Shown piece after piece: positions 16,777 to 30,842 of a DNA stretch of 64,000 nt (positions are counted from its first letter, which is position 1; every line of letters begins with the position of its first letter). The notes beneath the pieces are model-generated. The model saw only the letters and a program-made list of their open reading frames with translations, was not told the DNA's origin and searched no databases. The position numbers and the translations under genes are program-made. This stretch comes from Escherichia phage SUT_E420. The stretch lies in sequence record OQ990039; one strand, given 5' to 3'.

Positions 16777-17205
16777 ATGTTCAATAATGTATTCTCTAAA
16801 GAAGCTAACCCAATTTTGGTTAACTTTTGGCGTACTCTTCCAGCTAGCCTGTATAATGAGGCTATTAACTCTTTGAAAATATGGTGTGAGAATAACGAAA
16901 TCTACTTTGCTTTTAAAGATGATATTGATGAAGCCCCCTGTATTGGTTTAATTGTTCAGGTAGAGGAGGGTCTTGAAGAGATTGTCGGCTGGAAAGAGTT
17001 AGATGAAATGGGCTTAGTTTTTGCGTTAAACTATAAGCTGTTTATGCCTGCTAAGCATCGCCTCGTTGTTAACTATAAAACTAGTGAATCTCCTGGTTTT
17101 CAAGTTAATGAACGTTACGGTTGGTCTTACTCACCAGAAGAAGTGAATGATGGTATCCAAAAACTTCGCCGTTTCGGGTATATGATCCCAGGTTTAACTG
17201 CTTAA
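16777..17205 (+). CDS. Hypothetical protein, paralog A of a tandem pair
   Basis: 142 aa; shares PCIG...MGL(V/I)xALN...(I/V)PGL blocks with the adjacent downstream ORF. Confidence 0.5.
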   Translation: MFNNVFSKEANPILVNFWRTLPASLYNEAINSLKIWCENNEIYFAFKDDIDEAPCIGLIVQVEEGLEEIVGWKELDEMGLVFALNYKLFMPAKHRLVVNYKTSESPGFQVNERYGWSYSPEEVNDGIQKLRRFGYMIPGLTA

Positions 17206-17214
17206 GGAGGCAGA

Positions 17215-17604
17215 ATGGAACAAGTATATTGGCGTCAGATTGACCCTAGTTTGGTGAAACGTGCGGAGAAGCTGCTACAACGTTGGTTGGGGGTAAGACA
17301 AGCCTCCTTCACTTTTCCTGAGCAGCAAATAGATGATCCATGCATTGGCGTTTTCCTGTCTGGATACGCCAGGGAATGGGAACTGGATTGGAATGAGTTG
17401 TCTGCTATGGGTTTAATTGTTGCCCTAAATTTCTCTTTGTTCCATCCACGTGGTTTTGCCATATGTCGTGTGCCGGATGATGGTTGTTCGCCCCATCTTT
17501 TACAGGTGGAAAATGATATTTGGGAGTACACTCCAGATATTCTCAAAGAAGCTAAAGAACAATTAAACCGTGTTGGGATATATGTTCCGGGATTAAATGA
17601 CTAA
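17215..17604 (+). CDS. Hypothetical protein, paralog B of a tandem pair
   Basis: 129 aa; homologous to the upstream ORF over its conserved blocks; GGAGG SD. Confidence 0.5.
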   Translation: MEQVYWRQIDPSLVKRAEKLLQRWLGVRQASFTFPEQQIDDPCIGVFLSGYAREWELDWNELSAMGLIVALNFSLFHPRGFAICRVPDDGCSPHLLQVENDIWEYTPDILKEAKEQLNRVGIYVPGLND

Positions 17605-17630
17605 TGATTTTTATTAGCTGAACTCTGATT

Positions 17631-17656
17631 ACCGAGTCATTTTGGCTCGGTTTTAT
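17631..17656 (+). terminator. Intrinsic terminator candidate after the Sir2 operon
   Basis: 8-bp stem ACCGAGTC / GGCTCGGT followed by TTTT. Confidence 0.45.
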
Positions 17657-17698
17657 CCGTACTCAAGACCAATGATAGCACCATCCGGAAAATTTTAC

Positions 17699-17727
17699 TT
17701 GCAGGATGCTCAAAATCTTGATATAAT
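17699..17727 (+). promoter_or_regulatory. T5-type early promoter reading into the ORF-free region
   Basis: -35 TTGCAG (17699-17704), 17-nt spacer, -10 TATAAT (17722-17727). Confidence 0.5.
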
Positions 17728-18226
17728 ATTTATATTGAATTGAGAGATATTAGTAAAAATTGATTTTGCTAATTTTTCTTGTTTACAATCCGCGATACGG
17801 AACAGTTAGGCTGCCCAATTAAGGGTTGTTTTAACTGTTACGTGTTAGTTTTTAAACAAATAGTTAATAGAATACTTAGCGATCTGCGTCCCGTAGGAAC
17901 CCTGGTAAGGCCTCGAAGCAACCTAGATAGAGGTGGTTGTGAAGTGAGACGGGAGGAGTGAAAAACTCCGAGACGTGATTCTGTAAGTTATATTGCATCT
18001 AGTATGAGCTAGTACATGAAGCATTAGGTGAGCAAATCTGGCTTAGCGGCCATCCTCAAGGATTTGTGCGGTATAGCAAAGCAGCAGCGCAGCGTGAAAG
18101 TGGAAGTTGCCACCCCACTTCAGTATTTGCGATTAATTTGTTGAGAAATTGACAGTAACAGTTGTTCTATTCTTTCTGAATAGTCCTAAAGAAAACTTAT
18201 TTCATTTCCAACACAGGAGTATTGTT

Positions 18227-20641
18227 GTGTTCTCAATCCTACAAGGTCATGCAGGATTTCATCGCGATTTAGCCACAGGCAATTGGCGAGAAGTTAAAGC
18301 AGAAGACTATCTTTTTGCTAAAAGATTTTCCTCAAAGCATCCTGAAGGTAAACCAGCTTCAATGCCCTTCAAGTTTGATGTAATTGATGAAGTTGATCCT
18401 CAAACCCTAGTAGAAATGCTTCCTCTTATGAGACGTTTAACGTCTGACCCTCATATCGTTGCGGTACGAGGTCGATGTCTTACACCTAAAAATAATGTGC
18501 GACGTAAGAAGGGCAACTTTAATGTATCTAACCCAAGTCATATAATTGCAATGGACGTGGATGGTATTGTAGATACAGGTGGTTGCAACAAGTTTGATCT
18601 TGTTGGCATGGCTCGACATATTATTAGAATGTTAAATAGTATTAGTGAGGATATGTTTCCTCTTGATGCAGGGTTTATCGCTCATGCATCGTCTTCGGCT
18701 GGGCTNNNNNNNNNNNNNNNNNNNNNNNNNNNNNNNNNNNNNNNNNNNNNNNNNNNNNNNNNNNNNNNNNNNNNNNNNNNNNNNNNNNNNNNNNNNNNNN
18801 NNNNNATGTTAAATAGTATTAGTGAGGATATGTTTCCTCTTGATGCAGGGTTTATCGCTCATGCATCGTCTTCGGCTGGGCTAAAACCAGGTATCCGAAT
18901 GCACTTAATACTAGAATCTAATGTTAAAGTAACTCAGGGTCAAATCAAATTCTTATTTACATCTATCAACGAAAGTAGTAGACAAAAGTATGGCTTTGAT
19001 ATTGCCGACTTAGCTTATTACTCTTCCGTACAGCTCCACTATTTTGCAGATCCGTTATTTACCGATGGTATAGTAGATCCGTTTAAAGCGGAGGGTGCTT
19101 CACGTCTGGTATTTGTTAAGGGTTCTAAAGTAAATTTACCCAATAATCTGGTTGACTATGAAACAACTAGAGGTGAGTTTAAGGAGGAGTTTTACTCTTT
19201 ACTCGATCAAATTAAAGGTAAAAAAGCTGCCTCTGATAAAGTAGAGGAAACTATCAGCGAACTAGAAGAAGCTGAGGATGGAGTGTATCTACGTATCATA
19301 CCTAAACTCTATCACAGAGCCTTAGAGGATGGTGTTGATTTTGCATGGCTAGAAAAAGAAATCCGTCCAGCCTTATCAGAATATATTGCAACTAAAGATA
19401 ACAGTCGCAATATTCAAGATTACTTTAATAACGGTCGTAAACAGGCTCTGAAAGCATTTGTTAATAATTCTAAACGTGATATACCTGATGTTTTAAAGGG
19501 TATTCCACTTAAAAAGCTAGAAACTAATTCTCTAGAAACTGATAACTTCTTGAAATTAAATACTGTACCACCAGAAGGTTATATGACTTTTGTAAAAGCA
19601 AGTCTAGGTACAGGTAAAACTACAGCGGTTGTGCGTTGGTTAGATTCAGGAGTTATTAAAGGTAATTTCTTAGCAATTACCAATACTAGAGCACTGGTAT
19701 CTTCAAATGCCAAGAAATTTAGTGCAGGACAATATGATAAGTCTGTAGATATGCTTAATTTTAAGCGGGGTGCTATTGACCGTATGTCCACAACTATTCA
19801 CTCTTTGCATAAATTCAAGAGTTTTATTGGTCAAATTGATGCAATCTTTATCGATGAATGTGATGCAGTAATGAATGACCTATTATTCGCCCCGGTTGTT
19901 AAACAACGTCGCGAGTGTATTCAGGTTCTTCGGGATATTCTTGCAACTGCAAAAATCATTATATTATCTGATGGGGATATTAGTGCAGAAACAATTGAAG
20001 CATATGGTTCTTTGATTGAGTTTGATAAACCAGTAGCATTTTATAACCATCACCGTAAAATGCTATCAAAAGCTCATGCTTATGAGTTCCCGGATGAATC
20101 CAGTATTTGGGTTGCACTTCAGACTTCTCTAGAGATGGGTGAGAAATCTATCCTAGTATCTGACTGTGGGCCGGATGAACTGAATGAGAAGGGTATGGCA
20201 TTGCGTCGTAATACGGGTGCGTTAGTTAAGGAAATCCACTCAAANNNNNNNNNNNNNNNNNNNNNNNNNNNNNNNNNNNNNNNNNNNNNNNNNNNNNNNN
20301 NNNNNNNNNNNNNNNNNNNNNNNNNNNNNNNNNNNNNNNNNNNNGATATTAAGAAGTGTTCAAATGTCACTATCAAACCATTCATAGAAGCTCTGAAAGG
20401 TAAGAAGAAAGATTTCTTCCTTAAAACAGGTCAGAGTGCTAACCCAAAATATGCCAGAATGTATCTTGGTATGATGGGTATTGGTAAGGATATGAACACT
20501 GAAAATATTGTAGACTGGTACAGAACCTATTGTAAAATCGAGTGTATGCCAATCCCCTATAAGTTTATGACTGATGAGGAGAAACATATGCATGATGAAG
20601 CAATGGCAGAGCTAGGTGCTAGAAATGACAGTGAAGAATAA
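18227..20641 (+). CDS. Putative replication initiator / P-loop helicase-like ATPase, possible N-terminal primase-polymerase-like domain (interrupted by two assembly gaps)
   Basis: Start proposed at GTG 18227 with AGGAG SD. Walker A SLGTGKTT and Walker B IFIDECD. N-terminal IIAMDVDG and GIRMHLIL resemble AEP motifs (tentative). Contains gaps 18706-18805 and 20245-20344. Confidence 0.55.
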   Translation: MFSILQGHAGFHRDLATGNWREVKAEDYLFAKRFSSKHPEGKPASMPFKFDVIDEVDPQTLVEMLPLMRRLTSDPHIVAVRGRCLTPKNNVRRKKGNFNVSNPSHIIAMDVDGIVDTGGCNKFDLVGMARHIIRMLNSISEDMFPLDAGFIAHASSSAGXXXXXXXXXXXXXXXXXXXXXXXXXXXXXXXXXXMLNSISEDMFPLDAGFIAHASSSAGLKPGIRMHLILESNVKVTQGQIKFLFTSINESSRQKYGFDIADLAYYSSVQLHYFADPLFTDGIVDPFKAEGASRLVFVKGSKVNLPNNLVDYETTRGEFKEEFYSLLDQIKGKKAASDKVEETISELEEAEDGVYLRIIPKLYHRALEDGVDFAWLEKEIRPALSEYIATKDNSRNIQDYFNNGRKQALKAFVNNSKRDIPDVLKGIPLKKLETNSLETDNFLKLNTVPPEGYMTFVKASLGTGKTTAVVRWLDSGVIKGNFLAITNTRALVSSNAKKFSAGQYDKSVDMLNFKRGAIDRMSTTIHSLHKFKSFIGQIDAIFIDECDAVMNDLLFAPVVKQRRECIQVLRDILATAKIIILSDGDISAETIEAYGSLIEFDKPVAFYNHHRKMLSKAHAYEFPDESSIWVALQTSLEMGEKSILVSDCGPDELNEKGMALRRNTGALVKEIHSXXXXXXXXXXXXXXXXXXXXXXXXXXXXXXXXXXDIKKCSNVTIKPFIEALKGKKKDFFLKTGQSANPKYARMYLGMMGIGKDMNTENIVDWYRTYCKIECMPIPYKFMTDEEKHMHDEAMAELGARNDSEE
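18706..18805. other. Assembly gap (100 N) flanked by identical 77-bp copies
   Basis: The 77 bp before the N-run (18629-18705) are repeated exactly after it (18806-18882). Confidence 0.95.
20245..20344. other. Assembly gap (100 N) without flanking duplication
   Basis: No repeat of the flanking sequence across the gap; true gap content and length unknown. Confidence 0.95.
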
Positions 20642-20858
20642 AAAATGGGAAACAAGGAAGTTTCCAGTAAAAGAACGTAAAGTTCCTGTTTACGACACTT
20701 CGGAAAAGCTATGTAGGGTGGTACCGCATAGATTAGCTGGCATCCCTAACATATCCGAGTGGTTACTTAAACAACGGAAAACAAACGTGTCTCTTCGTAT
20801 CGGCTTTGAATTAGATAAAGTCTATGCTGAACTTGCTTCTTTACTCAAGGAATCGTAA
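20625..20858 (+). CDS. Hypothetical small basic protein
   Basis: ATG at 20625 within an ORF overlapping the end of the upstream gene. Weak. Confidence 0.3.
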   Translation: MTVKNKKWETRKFPVKERKVPVYDTSEKLCRVVPHRLAGIPNISEWLLKQRKTNVSLRIGFELDKVYAELASLLKES

Positions 20859-20866
20859 AAATTTAT

Positions 20867-20895
20867 TTGCATAGTGCAAAAAATTTCTGTATAAT
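20867..20895 (+). promoter_or_regulatory. T5 PN25-like early promoter
   Basis: AAAAATTTATTTGCAT...TTTCTGTATAATAGATTCATAAATTTGAGAGAGGAGTTTAAAT is nearly identical to the T5 PN25 promoter as I recall it. -35 TTGCAT (20867-20872), 17-nt spacer, -10 TATAAT (20890-20895). Confidence 0.7.
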
Positions 20896-20926
20896 AGATT
20901 CATAAATTTGAGAGAGGAGTTTAAAT

Positions 20927-21631
20927 ATGGCTGGTTCTCGTAGAAAGAAACATATCCATGAAATCCCGGATGAAGTCTTTAAAAAGGTTATAGAGCATCT
21001 GGAGAACGGTGGTACCAAGAAAGCAGCATGTGAAATGCTCGGCGTATCATCCAATCCAACTATGGAAAGGATGATTGAAGAATGGCAAGACCGCCAGATT
21101 CAAGTGGCTGAAATGAAGAAAAAGAAACGTGGCACACTCATTGAAGGCATTGAGTTAGCTAACGTTATTGAACAGTATTTGTCTGGTGATTCTTTTGAAG
21201 AAATTGCCGATCGTAATTACCGCTCTGTAGCAATGGTTAAATCTGTTCTGGAACGATATGGTGCTCTGCTTCGTTTGAATGATATTGTAGATCCATTGAA
21301 TCCTCCAATTATTCCTGATGATGCTGTAGCAGAAGAATTTGCAGTTGGTGAGCTTGTTTGGGTTCCTGGATACCAGTGTATCGGTGAAATCAAAAAAGCA
21401 ATGGATAACCCTGTTGGTTGTTACCGTGTATGGCTTCTATCAGAAGGCAAACAACAGAACGTTCATTATATGAATTACGAGCTGGCTTCTGTTAAACATC
21501 TGGAAAAGTTAGGGGTAGACGTAAAATCTCTAGGATATAAGTGGACTCGTGAAGAAATTATTACGTTGATTAACGAAGCTGTTAAGGCTGCCCTGAAACT
21601 TGATAAAGAAAAAGGAAAACGCCGTGAGTAA
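20927..21631 (+). CDS. Helix-turn-helix DNA-binding protein (possible regulator)
   Basis: 234 aa; N-terminal GGTKKAACEMLGVSSNPTMERMIEEW is a typical HTH; first gene after the PN25-like promoter. Confidence 0.5.
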   Translation: MAGSRRKKHIHEIPDEVFKKVIEHLENGGTKKAACEMLGVSSNPTMERMIEEWQDRQIQVAEMKKKKRGTLIEGIELANVIEQYLSGDSFEEIADRNYRSVAMVKSVLERYGALLRLNDIVDPLNPPIIPDDAVAEEFAVGELVWVPGYQCIGEIKKAMDNPVGCYRVWLLSEGKQQNVHYMNYELASVKHLEKLGVDVKSLGYKWTREEIITLINEAVKAALKLDKEKGKRRE

Positions 21632-21875
21632 GCTAACAGATTTGCTTAAAGATGGGGAAGTAAAAACTCTATATCGTAGAAGCTGGGATAATGACAATAA
21701 TGGCTTAGTGTTACTAACTTTAGACGCTGACTCAGATGTAGTTACCCAACATACCTGGGTAGCTGGTAATTATCCCTATAGTGAGGTTGTTACGTTAACA
21801 GTATGCGAAGCTATTGCTGACGATTGGGAGATTGCCAGCATTGATGATATGCTTGCTGTTGGCCTGGTGGAGTAA
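21624..21875 (+). CDS. Hypothetical small protein
   Basis: Proposed GTG start with AAGGAAAA SD overlapping the upstream stop. Confidence 0.35.
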   Translation: MSKLTDLLKDGEVKTLYRRSWDNDNNGLVLLTLDADSDVVTQHTWVAGNYPYSEVVTLTVCEAIADDWEIASIDDMLAVGLVE

Positions 21876-21892
21876 CTACAGAAAAATTTCAG

Positions 21893-21921
21893 TTGCTTAA
21901 TCCTATAATTCTTGATATAAT
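21893..21921 (+). promoter_or_regulatory. T5-type early promoter
   Basis: -35 TTGCTT (21893-21898), 17-nt spacer, -10 TATAAT (21916-21921). Confidence 0.5.
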
Positions 21922-21978
21922 ATTCTCATAGTTTGAAAGAACTATTCTGTTTAATTCTTAATTAAGGAAATATAAAAT

Positions 21979-22389
21979 ATGACTACTCCAACTCAGTGGA
22001 CTGATGAACTGTTCGAAAAAATGTCTTCCGAATACGTTGCTCGTATGGAGCAATTCCCAGAGGATGAACGTCCGGGTGTTAGCATGGAAATTGTTAGCGA
22101 AATTGCTCAGGAAAATGGTGTAACTCCGAACGGTTTTCGTATGAAGTTGACCAAAGCAGGTGTATATATCAAGAAAGCTGCTGGCTCTGCTTCTAAATCT
22201 AGTGCATCTACTGGAGAAAAAGCTTCTGGTGGTTCTCGCACTTCCAAAGCCCAAGCTCATGCCGATCTTCGTTCAGCATTCTCTGATGCTGGCCTAGCAC
22301 CAGATTTTCTGGATGATGCAATTATCGACAAACTGACCGGTAAAGCGGCTGCTCATCTGGCAGAAGCAATCCGAGCTATCACTAAGTAA
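21979..22389 (+). CDS. Hypothetical protein (Ser/Ala-rich linker)
   Basis: 136-aa ORF with host-optimal codons. Confidence 0.45.
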   Translation: MTTPTQWTDELFEKMSSEYVARMEQFPEDERPGVSMEIVSEIAQENGVTPNGFRMKLTKAGVYIKKAAGSASKSSASTGEKASGGSRTSKAQAHADLRSAFSDAGLAPDFLDDAIIDKLTGKAAAHLAEAIRAITK

Positions 22390-26162: not shown

Positions 26163-26195
26163 AAGGGGAGGGGGCTATGCTCCTTCCCCTTTTTG
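26163..26195 (+). terminator. Strong intrinsic terminator after the D5-like gene
   Basis: 12-bp stem (with two G-U pairs), CTATG loop, TTTTT tract. Confidence 0.5.
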
Positions 26196-26230
26196 CATTT
26201 AGAAGGCACGAAAGCGTGCAAAGGAGAATG

Positions 26231-27700
26231 ACCTTGTTTAACGTGCAAGCTGTAGTGTTGAAGATGCTTCTAGCTTCCGAACAGAAGCAAATAGCATTGG
26301 AAACATTCTCAAAACTGCATAAAGATCATTTTAATGACGCTTTCTCCTCAATTTACCAAGCCGTCCAGAATTATTATAAAAAATATAACACAATGCCGTC
26401 CATTGACGCACTTATGCTTGAAGCTAATAGGAACGCCCGCCTTTCTCAAGCCCTAGTCGTCTTAGCTAACACTCAAATTCCAGAAGTGAGCATGGAACAG
26501 GCACTTGAAGTCCTAGAGGCCGAGTATACACAGGATTTATTCCTGAAGCTTCTAGAAACAGACGTGCTTCAAGATTTAACAATGCTGGATCAGGGAGAAA
26601 TTCTCAACCGAGTTGCCTCCCTTCACTTAAAATTAGAAGAGAAAGTAACGAATACTGGAAAAGTATTCAACGCAGATAACATGCGTATTTTCCAGAGAGA
26701 AGAAGATACCAAACTGAACTTAATCGCTCTTGGTATTTGTAATGAGTTCGATGCTCAAATTGGTTTAGCTCGCACAGAAACGTTACTGCTTGGTGGTTGG
26801 CGTGGTACTGGTAAATCCATTATCTGTTCAAACATACAGGTTCAGCAATATTTGAATGGAGATATTGCTCCATACTTCTCAATTGAGATGAAAGAACATG
26901 AAGTATTTAGACGTAATCTAGCCATGTTAGCCGGGGTATCAGCACTAGCAATGCGTAATAATACTCTAGAAGGTGCAGCTCTATTGAGATTAGCCAGAAC
27001 TAGAGCTAGAATGTTCAACGGGGGTGAAGAGCTTTTCGATAACTTCGTTAAACAGTATACAATGGCTAAGATGAGTGATTTCTACGATATGGAGAGTAAG
27101 CTAATAGAGGGGTATGAACTACATACTCCTATGATTATCGTTTATGACCCTGAACTGTCCATTACAACAGTTGACGTAGAATTAAATAAATTAGTTGCTA
27201 GATATGGTGATAAAGTTACAGTAGCTTTACTGGACTATATTAACCAAACCCGACTTCCAGATTCTAAAACCATTGATATGTATGACTGGAAGGAACAGAT
27301 GGTTGTTAGCTCGTCTTTCAAATCCATCTGCCAGAAACATAACGTGGCTGGCGTAGCTCCCTACCAGATCGATCAAGATGGTAGAACACGTATGTCAAAG
27401 GGGATTCTTGATTCCGCAGACATGGCTGCTAATCTTAATGCTGCTAAAGCTGATAATGGTCAAGGTGCTATTATGTTTGACTTTGTTAAGACTCGTTCTT
27501 CTGATAGCGTGAAGTTTATGCCTAAAATGAATTGGGAAACTCTGCGAATGGATAATACTACCAACCTAGCAATGGAAGATATATCTCAAATGGAAGCTGA
27601 GTTCGTTATCCCTATTGAGAAGGATAAGCCGGCTCAACCTAAACGTGCTAAGAAAGACAAAACTGAAAATTCAACAGGTGAACAGGCCAGCGATATATGA
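26231..27700 (+). CDS. Replicative helicase-like ATPase (RecA-fold, DnaB-like)
   Basis: Walker A GGWRGTGKS, Walker B-like IIVYDPE. Start uncertain: the track ATG at 26177 lies in the terminator loop, so 26231 (or TTG 26237) is preferred. Confidence 0.6.
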   Translation, partial: TLFNVQAVVLKMLLASEQKQIALETFSKLHKDHFNDAFSSIYQAVQNYYKKYNTMPSIDALMLEANRNARLSQALVVLANTQIPEVSMEQALEVLEAEYTQDLFLKLLETDVLQDLTMLDQGEILNRVASLHLKLEEKVTNTGKVFNADNMRIFQREEDTKLNLIALGICNEFDAQIGLARTETLLLGGWRGTGKSIICSNIQVQQYLNGDIAPYFSIEMKEHEVFRRNLAMLAGVSALAMRNNTLEGAALLRLARTRARMFNGGEELFDNFVKQYTMAKMSDFYDMESKLIEGYELHTPMIIVYDPELSITTVDVELNKLVARYGDKVTVALLDYINQTRLPDSKTIDMYDWKEQMVVSSSFKSICQKHNVAGVAPYQIDQDGRTRMSKGILDSADMAANLNAAKADNGQGAIMFDFVKTRSSDSVKFMPKMNWETLRMDNTTNLAMEDISQMEAEFVIPIEKDKPAQPKRAKKDKTENSTGEQASDI

Positions 27701-28587
27701 GTAGAATAACAGAACTACTTGATCTGAAAGGCATTGAATATAAAGACACAGGTGGGGACATCCTCATCTGTTGTCTCAATCCAGATCATGACGATAAACA
27801 CCCAAGTTTGCGTATTGATCCTGAAACAGGTATTATGCACTGCTTGAGTTGTGGCTTCGGTAAAGGTATACCGAGCATTTACCATTATTTTAATGAGACT
27901 CAGTACCGACAGTCTCCAAGACTATCGCAGGTACGTAAAAAGATTTCAGAGATTAGGAATGGATCTACAAATCTTGCAATTCCTGAATCTGCTTACCTTT
28001 TCGAAGGTGATTTCCGAGGTATAAGTTCTAAGACCTTGAAGAAATACTTTGCTTTCCAACACCAAGCAGACTGGGAAGGCAGAATTGTATTCCCAATCAC
28101 AGATGCTGTTGGACGCAATATCCTATTTTTGGGTCGTTCTATAAACAGTTCTGCCCCTCCTAAATACTTAGTAAAACCAAAACAAGTTTCACCACCGATT
28201 TTCCCTGTACGATATAATACTCCAGTTCTTATTCTAGTTGAAGGTATCTTTGATATGCTGAACCTAGAGGATAATGGTATAGACTATGCTTCTTGCTGCT
28301 TTGGTACACATCAGTTTACTTCAGATAACATTGCAGATAAGTTTAGCCCTTATATTATTGCTGGTGTAAAAGTTGTTGTTATCTTACTAGATAATGATGC
28401 TTCTGGTAATAAAGCTGCACAAGCGTTGGCCAAGCTAATTCGTACAAAAACGCGTTTAACACCTGTAGTGGCTAACTTTCTTCTACCCGAAGGTAAAGAC
28501 CCTGGTGACTTAAATAAAGAAGAAATTGATATGTTAGCAAAACGTATTGAAATTTTAGTTGCTGAATCGCTTAAAGATTTGGTATAA
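27697..28587 (+). CDS. DNA primase (DnaG-like, zinc-binding + TOPRIM)
   Basis: 296 aa; zinc motif CCLNPDHDDKHPS...CLSCGFG and TOPRIM acidic motif ILVEGIFDMLNLEDNG. Confidence 0.8.
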   Translation: MSRITELLDLKGIEYKDTGGDILICCLNPDHDDKHPSLRIDPETGIMHCLSCGFGKGIPSIYHYFNETQYRQSPRLSQVRKKISEIRNGSTNLAIPESAYLFEGDFRGISSKTLKKYFAFQHQADWEGRIVFPITDAVGRNILFLGRSINSSAPPKYLVKPKQVSPPIFPVRYNTPVLILVEGIFDMLNLEDNGIDYASCCFGTHQFTSDNIADKFSPYIIAGVKVVVILLDNDASGNKAAQALAKLIRTKTRLTPVVANFLLPEGKDPGDLNKEEIDMLAKRIEILVAESLKDLV

Positions 28588-28649: not shown

Positions 28650-30842
28650 TTGAAAATCGCAGTAGTTGATAAAGCTCTAAATAACACTCGTTACGATAAA
28701 CATTTCCAGCTATACGGCGAGGAAGTTGATGTATTTCATATGTGTAACGAGAAGTTATCTGGTCGTTTGCTTAAAAAGCACATTACTATTGGAACACCAG
28801 AAAATCCATTTGATCCGAATGATTACGATTTTGTTATACTAGTAGGTGCTGAACCTTTCCTGTATTTCGCAGGTAAGAAAGGCATTGGTGACTATACTGG
28901 TAAACGTGTAGAATATAATGGATATGCTAACTGGATTGCAAGTATCAGCCCAGCCCAGTTACACTTTAAGCCTGAAATGAAACCAGTTTTCGATGCAACA
29001 GTAGAGAATATCCACGATATTATCAATGGTCGTGAAAAGATTGCAAAAGCTGGTGATTACCGTCCTATTACTGACCCTGATGAGGCGGAAGAATATATCA
29101 AGATGGTGTATAATATGGTTATCGGACCTGTCGCATTCGACTCCGAAACCTCAGCACTATACTGTCGAGATGGTTATCTGCTTGGTGTTTCTATATCTCA
29201 CCAAGAGTATCAGGGTGTATATATCGATTCTGATTGTCTCACAGAGGTTGCAGTATATTATCTCCAGAAAATTCTGGATAGTGAAAACCACACTATTGTT
29301 TTTCACAACTTGAAGTTTGATATGCACTTTTATAAGTACCATCTGGGACTTACTTTTGATAAAGCACATAAAGAACGCAGGCTCCATGATACAATGTTGC
29401 AGCATTATGTTCTAGATGAGCGTCGTGGTACTCATGGCTTGAAATCTCTAGCAATGAAGTATACCGATATGGGTGACTATGACTTTGAACTAGATAAGTT
29501 CAAAGATGATTACTGCAAAGCACATAAAATCAAGAAAGAAGATTTCACCTATGATTTAATTCCGTTTGATATTATGTGGCCTTACGCTGCAAAAGATACC
29601 GATGCCACCATACGCTTGCACAACTTCTTCTTACCAAAAATTGAGAAGAATGAAAAACTTTGCAGTCTGTATTATGATGTTCTAATGCCTGGTTGTGTAT
29701 TTCTCCAGCGTGTTGAGGATCGTGGTGTACCNNNNNNNNNNNNNNNNNNNNNNNNNNNNNNNNNNNNNNNNNNNNNNNNNNNNNNNNNNNNNNNNNNNNN
29801 NNNNNNNNNNNNNNNNNNNNNNNNNNNNNNNGGGTATCGTGTAATCGCATGGGACTTAACAACTGCGGAAGTTTATTATGCTGCTGTTCTATCTGGGGAT
29901 AGAAATATGCAACAGGTATTTATCAATATGAGAAATGAACCTGATAAATACCCGGACTTCCACTCTAACATCGCACACATGGTATTTAAACTCCAATGCG
30001 AGCCTCGTGATGTTAAAAAGTTATTCCCAGCTCTGCGTCAGGCTGCTAAGGCAATTACCTTCGGTATTTTGTATGGTTCTGGCCCAGCTAAAGTAGCTCA
30101 TTCTGTTAACGAAGCTCTTCTGGAACAGGCTGCTAAGACAGGAGAACCGTTTGTTGAATGTACTGTTGCGGATGCGAAGGACTATATCGAAACTTACTTC
30201 GGTCAGTTCCCACAGCTTAAGCGTTGGATTGATAAGTGCCACGATCAGATTAAGAATCATGGATTTATCTATAGTCACTTTGGTCGTAAGCGTCGTCTGC
30301 ACAATATCCACTCCGAAGACCGTGGTGTTCAGGGTGAAGAAATTCGTTCTGGATTTAACGCAATCATTCAGTCTGCTTCCTCTGATAGCCTCCTTTTAGG
30401 TGCTGTAGATGCAGATAATGAGATCATTTCTCTTGGCCTAGAACAAGAGATGAAGATTGTTATGCTGGTTCATGACTCCGTGGTTGCTATTGTTCGTGAG
30501 GATTTGATCGACCAATACAATGAAATCCTGATTCGTAATATTCAGAAAGACCGTGGTATCAGTATTCCTGGCTGTCCGATTGGTATTGATTCAGATTCTG
30601 AAGCTGGAGGTTCTCGTGACTATTCTTGTGGTAAGATGAAGAAACAGCACCCATCAATCGCTTGTATTGATGATGATGAATATACTCGTTATGTCAAGAG
30701 TGTATTACTTGATGCAGAGTTCGAGTATAAGAAACTAGCTGCAATGGATAAAGAGCATCCAGATCATAGCAAATACAAGGATGATAAGTTTATTGCTGTA
30801 TGTAAAGATTTGGATAACGTAAGAAGGATTCTCGGTGCTTGA
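28650..30842 (+). CDS. DNA polymerase, family A with 3'-5' exonuclease domain (interrupted by an assembly gap)
   Basis: TTG start after AGAGGAG SD. Exo motif FDSETSALY, Pol motif B RQAAKAITFGILYGSG, motif C LVHDSV. Gap 29732-29831 has no flanking duplication. Confidence 0.9.
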   Translation: MKIAVVDKALNNTRYDKHFQLYGEEVDVFHMCNEKLSGRLLKKHITIGTPENPFDPNDYDFVILVGAEPFLYFAGKKGIGDYTGKRVEYNGYANWIASISPAQLHFKPEMKPVFDATVENIHDIINGREKIAKAGDYRPITDPDEAEEYIKMVYNMVIGPVAFDSETSALYCRDGYLLGVSISHQEYQGVYIDSDCLTEVAVYYLQKILDSENHTIVFHNLKFDMHFYKYHLGLTFDKAHKERRLHDTMLQHYVLDERRGTHGLKSLAMKYTDMGDYDFELDKFKDDYCKAHKIKKEDFTYDLIPFDIMWPYAAKDTDATIRLHNFFLPKIEKNEKLCSLYYDVLMPGCVFLQRVEDRGVXXXXXXXXXXXXXXXXXXXXXXXXXXXXXXXXXXGYRVIAWDLTTAEVYYAAVLSGDRNMQQVFINMRNEPDKYPDFHSNIAHMVFKLQCEPRDVKKLFPALRQAAKAITFGILYGSGPAKVAHSVNEALLEQAAKTGEPFVECTVADAKDYIETYFGQFPQLKRWIDKCHDQIKNHGFIYSHFGRKRRLHNIHSEDRGVQGEEIRSGFNAIIQSASSDSLLLGAVDADNEIISLGLEQEMKIVMLVHDSVVAIVREDLIDQYNEILIRNIQKDRGISIPGCPIGIDSDSEAGGSRDYSCGKMKKQHPSIACIDDDEYTRYVKSVLLDAEFEYKKLAAMDKEHPDHSKYKDDKFIAVCKDLDNVRRILGA
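29732..29831. other. Assembly gap (100 N) without flanking duplication, inside the polymerase gene
   Basis: No repeated flank; likely conceals real polymerase sequence. Confidence 0.95.

Follow-up and report, generated by a model that had tools for sequence, protein, structure and literature searches.

The start of DNA replication in T5, a classic model phage, is to our knowledge not understood, and D2, a protein of its early gene cluster, has been described so far only as an unusual two-way helicase preceded by about 390 unassigned N-terminal residues. An orthologous gene occupies positions 18227–20641 of a 64,000-nucleotide (nt) stretch of Escherichia phage SUT_E420 (sequence record OQ990039; the whole stretch is called the window below), and a preliminary description, made from the sequence alone, had seen in it a large replication ATPase with a possible primase-polymerase-like domain at the N terminus. 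The question raised by this locus is what the unassigned residues are, and whether they might lay primers. The analysis described below leads to the verdict of a known protein with a new and well-supported domain assignment: the gene is D2, and residues 1–255 are predicted, with high confidence, to adopt the fold of the archaeo-eukaryotic primases (AEPs). If this domain were an active primase-polymerase, D2 would become a candidate all-in-one initiator, T5-like phages would use two unrelated primases, and a direct handle would be gained on the mechanism and the location of T5 replication initiation. The assignment would also place a widespread phage family among the phages in which an AEP is encoded alongside a DnaG primase.

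Identity and reconstruction of the gene

Positions 18227–20641 (+ strand) constitute one long open reading frame (ORF) with a GTG start at 18227, as in the T5 D2 clone (VFSILQ...) of Wong, Sayers & Sanders 2013 (PMC3632103), and a TAA stop at 20639–20641. The ORF contains two runs of 100 N, gap 1 at 18706–18805 and gap 2 at 20245–20344. The features that define the gene are as follows.

18215–18219, + strand: ribosome-binding site AGGAG, 7 nt 5′ of the GTG start, read from the sequence.
18227–20641, + strand: coding sequence (CDS) of D2, or 'replication origin binding protein', as it stands in the window; from PHROG 3712 and identity to SUT_E1520.
18706–18882, strand not applicable: false assembly gap, consisting of 100 N (18706–18805) and a 77-nt copy (18806–18882); from the terminal duplicate and the match of the collapsed sequence to SUT_E1520.
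20245–20344, strand not applicable: real assembly gap; no duplicate, flanks 652 nt apart in OQ885479, and PHROG 3712 covered at 1–614 and 833–927 only.
20345–20641, + strand: C-terminal 98 residues of D2 and the TAA stop; PHROG 3712 positions 833–927, E 1.6e-46.

Gap 1 is bordered by an exact 77-nt duplicate (18629–18705 equals 18806–18882), and deletion of 18706–18882 (177 nt, 59 codons) preserves the frame and gives a sequence that is base-for-base identical to the beginning of the SUT_E1520 CDS; this gap is false and hides nothing. Gap 2 conceals 652 nt (217 residues, about 614–831), which cover what is left of the helicase, probably with motifs V and VI, and extend into the C-terminal region. 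The suspicion voiced in the preliminary description, that one of the two gaps hides real sequence, was thus well founded. With 177 nt removed at gap 1 and 652 nt in place of the 100 N of gap 2, the corrected gene measures 2790 nt and encodes 929 residues, the numbering used hereafter; its visible parts (18227–18705 joined to 18883–20244, and 20345–20641) are identical to the CDS of SUT_E1520 (OQ885479, L001 7228–10017).

A megablast search with positions 17000–22000 matched 530 phage records, all of them T5-like (Tequintavirus and relatives), with nucleotide identities of 100% for SUT_E1520 and SUT_E520 and 97.7% for T5_ev212, and the protein shares 926 of 929 residues (99.7%) with D2 of T5_ev212. 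PHROG 3712 ('replication origin binding') matches with E = 0 over profile positions 1–614, in addition to the C-terminal match listed above, and the flanking genes are those of T5_ev212 and SUT_E1520, in the early replication cluster. The start codon, the length of 929 residues, Walker A residue K405 and the early-cluster position are all shared with T5 D2, from which the protein shows no substantive difference. The observation is real, and the gene is an orthologue of the characterised T5 D2. It is annotated as 'putative replication origin binding protein' in SUT_E1520 and as "5'-3' and 3'-5' helicase" in T5_ev212, and the majority of phage records name it 'replication origin binding protein' or 'hypothetical protein'. 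A few GenBank records call it 'DNA primase' or 'DNA primase C' (e.g., NC_103213.1 58793–59911 and MF431734.1 59857–60975), with the basis unstated.

A predicted AEP-like domain at the N terminus

The AEP-like domain and its motifs are located as follows.

18227–19168 (false gap included), + strand: AEP-like (primase-polymerase fold) domain, residues 1–255 in corrected numbering; from predicted fold and conserved motifs.
18542–18565, + strand: AEP motif I (hhhDhD), IIAMDVDG, residues 106–113, with D110 at 18554–18556 and D112 at 18560–18562; on model strand 104–114.
18689–18913, split by the false gap into 18689–18705 and 18883–18913, + strand: AEP motif II region SSSAGLKPGIRMHLIL, residues 155–170, with H167 at 18902–18904; from conservation.
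18995–19060, + strand: AEP motif III, IAD (D202 at 19007–19009), followed by VQLHYFADPLF (Q210, H212, Y213, P217); from conservation.
19097–19117, + strand: candidate motif IV ('Rh', flange strand), ASRLVFV, with R234 at 19103–19105; from conservation and the motif definition in PMC5862659.

Structure prediction of the N-terminal region, which the preliminary description had proposed as a check, produced a confident model with an AEP-like fold. The AlphaFold2 models, built with homologue alignments, reached a mean predicted local distance difference test score (pLDDT) of 89.7 for residues 1–373, and a pLDDT of 94.9 with a predicted template modelling score (pTM) of 0.90 for residues 1–260. When compared with PDB structures by Foldseek, the best 50 hits were all AEPs, with a probability of up to 0.97 (LigD PolDom), although the E-values were weak (3e-3 and above); among these 50 were African swine fever virus (ASFV) PrimPol, LigD PolDom, S-2L PrimPol, RepB', Prim-PolC, HP0184, and human PrimPol. 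We consider it very probable that the N-terminal domain has an AEP-like fold, with the α/β unit and RRM-like sheet of the AEP catalytic core.

The motif set hhhDhD ... H ... hD ... Rh matches AEP motifs I–III and, as a candidate, motif IV as set out in PMC5862659, and the spacing is AEP-like, with 55 residues from motif I to motif II and 35 from motif II to motif III. Conservation was counted over 77 homologous domain sequences of 20–35% identity. D112 and D202 are invariant (77/77 each), and D110 is kept in all but one sequence, which has Glu (76/77). Position 167 is His in 71 and Arg in 6 of the 77 domains, and S155 is Ser in 72 and Thr in the other 5; G159 is kept in 73. Downstream of D202, P217 (76/77) and P226 (74/77) are nearly invariant, followed by Y213 (64/77), Q210 (58/77), and H212 (54/77). 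R234, together with L235, is found in 90% or more of the 25 sequences of a subset (alignment A3) and lies at the start of model strand 235–238; R234 may correspond to R231 of PolpTN2. The two segments that had been pointed out from the sequence as primase-like, IIAMDVDG and GIRMHLIL (residues 163–170, ending at 18913), are hence present, and their key residues D110, D112, and H167 are strongly conserved, beyond chance expectation; the third catalytic motif, with D202, had been missed and is added here.

The AEP-like domain is followed by a second, helical one.

19190–19471, + strand: helical-bundle domain, residues 263–356, containing the helix-turn-helix (HTH) predicted at residues 308–329 (Wong et al., PMC3632103).

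This bundle may be the counterpart of the PriCT or pRN1 helix-bundle domain; its comparison with the PriCT_2 domains of relatives gave only weak hidden Markov model (HMM) matches (E 0.08–5).

A UL9-like superfamily 2 helicase

The helicase features visible in the window are as follows.

19556–20244, + strand: UL9-like superfamily 2 (SF2) helicase, comprising the N-terminal RecA lobe and the beginning of the second (residues ~385–613), cut short by gap 2; from Pfam, UL9 structures, and CyRepA1.
19601–19624, + strand: Walker A, SLGTGKTT, residues 400–407, with K405 at 19616–19618; from sequence and the K405E mutation in T5 D2 (PMC3632103).
19844–19864, + strand: Walker B or DExx box, IFIDECD, residues 481–487; from sequence, inside the Herpes_ori_bp match.

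The Walker A (GTGKTT) and Walker B (IFIDECD) motifs reported for the C-terminal half are both present, and a P-loop helicase is confirmed by Herpes_ori_bp, PHROG 3712, and the UL9 structures. Pfam Herpes_ori_bp (PF02399) matches residues 393–533 with 25.6–29.2 bits against a cutoff of 20; the sole PDB sequence matches are herpesvirus UL9 structures (9hgj, 9hgi, 9zgf, 9vjh; residues 388–532, E 1.9e-5); and NCBIfam CyRepA1 (NF042913) matches residues 393–722 with E 4.7e-35 and 121.6 bits, against a family cutoff of 200. Because of these three matches, the ATPase is assigned by sequence similarity as a UL9-like SF2 helicase and not as a D5-like superfamily 3 (SF3) ATPase. The region expected to hold the second RecA lobe, with motifs V and VI, lies behind gap 2 in the window and is present in SUT_E1520; the CyRepA1 match reaches residue 722, and Helicase_C was seen in 5 of 36 homologues. 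A D5-type architecture, which the preliminary description had anticipated in naming Prim-Pol, D5_N, and Primase_C as the profiles to search, was not borne out: none of Prim-Pol, D5_N, and PriCT matches D2 even at E ≤ 5. A D5-like SF3 primase-helicase (D5_N, PriCT, and a Pox_D5/DUF5906/VirE ATPase) was also considered as a candidate and rejected, no such Pfam model matching D2 at that threshold and these modules occurring only in distant relatives of the N-terminal domain.

Purified T5 D2 performs ATP-dependent bipolar unwinding, more robust in the 3′–5′ direction, and the Walker A mutation K405E kills both its ATPase and helicase activities (Wong, Sayers & Sanders 2013, PMC3632103). In that study, the homology to UL9 was restricted to residues 392–532, motifs V and VI were identified, and residues ~1–390 were left unassigned apart from the HTH mentioned above and coiled coils. 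What is new relative to PMC3632103 is the assignment of residues 1–255 as a predicted AEP fold; the gene and the helicase activity were already known.

Relatives of the N-terminal domain

With residues 1–373 as query, a full HMMER search through 1.84 billion representative proteins returned 81 hits. About 35 of them are D2-like proteins of 900–1050 residues with 22–36% identity, and a more remote group of about 44 (phmmer E 1e-7 to 1e-3) covers residues ~30–250 only. The modules fused to the domain in these distant relatives are VapE/VirE-like (10), DUF5906 (8), PriCT_2 (4), Pox_D5, D5_N, and a DnaG zinc ribbon, which are typical companions of AEP primases in mobile elements. Their N-terminal domains match PHROG 16950 'DNA primase' at E-values as low as 4e-60; their cluster names ('predicted P-loop ATPase' or 'hypothetical') are uninformative. 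The domain was found in 905 phage records. It also occurs in proteobacterial and metagenomic proteins, joined to VirE-like, DUF5906/D5-like, and PriCT_2 modules. A tblastn search of plasmids gave 6 hits, none functionally annotated (four 'hypothetical protein' and two without a feature). No Pfam or NCBIfam model spans the N-terminal domain, and its family looks like an AEP lineage missed by the standard profile libraries.

Comparison with known primase and helicase systems

The closest parallels in layout are the AEP fusions of mobile elements (PMC5862659), which have the same order of N-terminal AEP, helical domain, and helicase; D2 has motifs I–III and the candidate Arg motif IV. Fusions of AEPs to UL9-like SF2 helicases have been described there for all3500-like AEPs (PrimPol-PV1 supergroup; Kazlauskas et al. 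2018, PMC5862659). The available parts of the text and supplements of that AEP survey yielded no T5-like phage sequence, and no paper assigning an AEP domain to T5 D2 was found within an incomplete coverage of the literature.

Herpesvirus UL9 and D2 have the SF2 core in common, alignable from Walker A to motif II (residues 388–532 of D2 and ~80–230 of UL9), and each is a known or candidate replication initiator. UL9 has no AEP ahead of its helicase, since the helicase begins near residue 80; moreover, UL9 unwinds only in the 3′–5′ direction, whereas D2 unwinds in both, and no sequence similarity was detected beyond the first RecA lobe. The CyRepA plasmid initiators combine a Toprim-like domain with the same type of helicase (PMC10079941). 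CyRepA1 has a homologous helicase and the same layout of N-terminal primase-type domain, helical linker, and DEXDc helicase, yet at its N terminus stands DUF3854, a Toprim-related domain and not an AEP; with its 121.6 bits below the cutoff of 200, D2 is not a member of CyRepA1. The AEP domains of human PrimPol, poxvirus D5/E5, and herpes simplex virus (HSV) UL52 share only 10–13% sequence identity with the D2 domain. Furthermore, D5 carries an SF3 helicase whereas that of D2 is SF2, the UL52-type zinc finger of PrimPol is missing from D2, and Pfam D5_N and PriCT do not match.

Replication context

A second set of replication genes lies 5.5 kb 3′ of the D2 gene.

26177–27700, + strand: DnaB-like helicase; Pfam DnaB_C, E 7.8e-9.
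27697–28587, + strand: DnaG-type primase with zinc ribbon and Toprim domains; Toprim_2, E 2.3e-9; Zn_ribbon_DnaG, E 1.7e-6; DNAG_N, E 3.1e-6.

The companion DnaG-like primase, beside which an AEP in this phage had been expected to stand, is thereby confirmed. Directly after it follows an ORF of 730 residues (28650–30842, + strand) broken by a gap at 29732–29831, which, as we presume from the T5 gene order, may be the DNA polymerase.

Directly 5′ of D2 there is a spacer of ~620 nt (17605–18226), gene-free in the annotations of SUT_E1520 and T5_ev212. It gave no Rfam match, and its counts of promoters and terminators equal the expectation from shuffled sequence; its only inverted repeat is 12 nt long (17797–17808 / 17832–17843), and the GC fraction falls to 0.32 at 17600–17900. 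Possible contents of the spacer are a promoter region, a small gene (ORF 17779–17961, 60 residues), or origin elements.

Proposed function of D2

We propose that D2 consists of four parts from the N to the C terminus, namely, the AEP-like domain (residues 1–255), the helical bundle (263–356), the UL9-like SF2 helicase (~385–830), and a C-terminal region of ~100 residues. In the AEP-like domain, D110, D112, and D202 would serve as metal ligands, with H167 and probably R234 facing the nucleotide, and the helical bundle is probably DNA-binding. D2 could then act as a self-contained initiator, in which the helicase opens the DNA and the AEP-like domain lays the first primer, after which the DnaB/DnaG pair and the phage DNA polymerase would take over bulk synthesis at the fork. 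For the 99.7%-identical T5 protein, the helicase is established by experiment. Computation is the source of three further findings, namely, the AEP fold, the conserved catalytic residues, and the primase-type partners of distant relatives. On sequence and model evidence together, we consider it reasonably likely that D2 is an initiator built of AEP, helical bundle, and SF2 helicase, with the catalytic activity and the initiator role both included. A broader version, in which D2 is a working primase-helicase-initiator of an unmodelled AEP family common to Demerecviridae and proteobacterial VirE/D5-type elements, with AEP-D2 starting replication and DnaG serving the lagging strand, is put forward more tentatively, as a possibility that we would not yet back at even odds.

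Several results weigh against this proposal. At the sequence level, no AEP, Prim-Pol, D5_N, or PriCT model of Pfam matched D2 at E ≤ 5; Pfam searches at E ≤ 10 with 25 isolated N-terminal domains gave only scattered single chance hits; a NCBIfam scan found nothing on the D2 N terminus; a profile of the N-terminal domain had no match among the PDB sequences at E ≤ 10; and hhalign against a small alignment of the S-2L PrimPol family was not significant (E 0.033, probability 1.5%). In motif II, Arg or Lys stands two positions ahead of the His, in place of the small residue of 'sxH'. With regard to function, the DnaG-type primase already encoded leaves no obvious need for priming by D2, the spacer at 17605–18226 next to the D2 gene shows no origin-like iterons, and primer synthesis is not reported in the published biochemistry of D2 (PMC3632103). 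Alongside these results, the single, non-significant local alignment from hhalign places H167 on H118 and D202 on D146 of S-2L PrimPol, and a change of the motif II His to Arg/Lys is known from the DR0530-like AEP family (PMC5862659). A PHROGs scan of the collapsed and full protein yielded PHROG 3712 only and no AEP model, and searches for homologous proteins returned 2, 19, and 4 matches, without names or Pfam domains and with no link to a named AEP family. As judged from sequence comparison, membership of the D2 domain in a named AEP family is not established, there being no significant match to any AEP family model. The AEP domain suggested in the preliminary description is accordingly upheld in its predicted fold and conserved catalytic motifs, but not in the profile-level matches to Prim-Pol, D5_N, or PriCT.

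It may be asked, first, whether the N-terminal domain is derived from an AEP without being a polymerase, serving the helicase instead only as a module that binds DNA, recognises the origin, or mediates oligomerisation while the DnaG-type primase does all the priming in T5. The full DnaB/DnaG pair nearby is in line with such a role, as is the D2 study, which describes helicase, ATPase, and DNA-binding activities only (PMC3632103). The divergence of the domain beyond the reach of AEP sequence profiles and the deviation of motif II from 'sxH' at the small-residue position point in the same direction. On the other side, the invariance or near-invariance of D110, D112, and D202 and the high conservation of H167, S155, G159, and R234 hold across differing domain architectures. 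Inactivated enzyme domains normally lose their catalytic residues, and their retention therefore counts against a non-catalytic module, which we regard as unlikely.

Secondly, the AEP-like domain may be active but serve as a repair or restart primase-polymerase, re-priming or performing translesion synthesis behind the helicase in the manner of eukaryotic PrimPol. The presence of non-homologous end joining (NHEJ) polymerases among the fold matches is compatible with this role, and DnaG could handle normal priming. However, the fusion to a UL9-/CyRepA-like helicase and the PriCT/VirE/D5 architectures of the relatives are typical of mobile-element initiators (PMC5862659), and the gene lies within the early replication cluster. 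We hold a restart enzyme to be quite improbable, while noting that no evidence here separates initiation from restart.

Finally, that the N-terminal domain belongs not to the AEPs but to another RRM-like or 'palm-like' replication fold, e.g., a HUH-type nicking Rep or a viral origin-binding domain in which Q210-x-H212-Y213 would cleave DNA, draws on the resemblance of the conserved QLHY to a metal-binding pair plus tyrosine and on the site-specific nicks carried by T5 DNA, but is very improbable, because the invariant acidic residues fit the AEP pattern DxD ... H ... D and not HUH plus Y and the partner domains of the relatives (PriCT_2, VirE, and D5-like) are primase partners; on the fold ranking, the reading of QLHY as a HUH-nickase motif was rejected.

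Downstream genes and further assembly gaps

Two ORFs follow the D2 gene on the same strand. The first (20616–20858, +) encodes 80 residues, overlaps the D2 3′ end by 26 nt, and is called 'hypothetical protein' in related phages, with no Pfam match. The second (20927–21631, +) encodes a protein of 234 residues that carries the label 'D2 protein' in T5_ev212, although the D2 helicase of the literature is encoded by the gene before it; because of this label, the D2 name is used inconsistently across records. The 234-residue protein shows a weak match to HTH_28 (E 1.6e-4, below the cutoff).

The false gap in D2 is one of many. An exact 77-nt duplicate borders 12 of the 14 N-runs of the window, those at 18706, 33978, 34636, 35373, 36005, 36875, 37871, 38443, 45263, 60991, 61494, and 62115. 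The duplicates look like unmerged contig ends with an overlap of one k-mer, and these 12 gaps are false; each adds 177 spurious bases, made up of 100 N and a 77-nt repeat, and reading frames are preserved, since 177 is 59 × 3. Only the runs at 20245–20344 and 29732–29831 have no 77-nt duplicate, and the latter, like gap 2 of D2, probably conceals real sequence.

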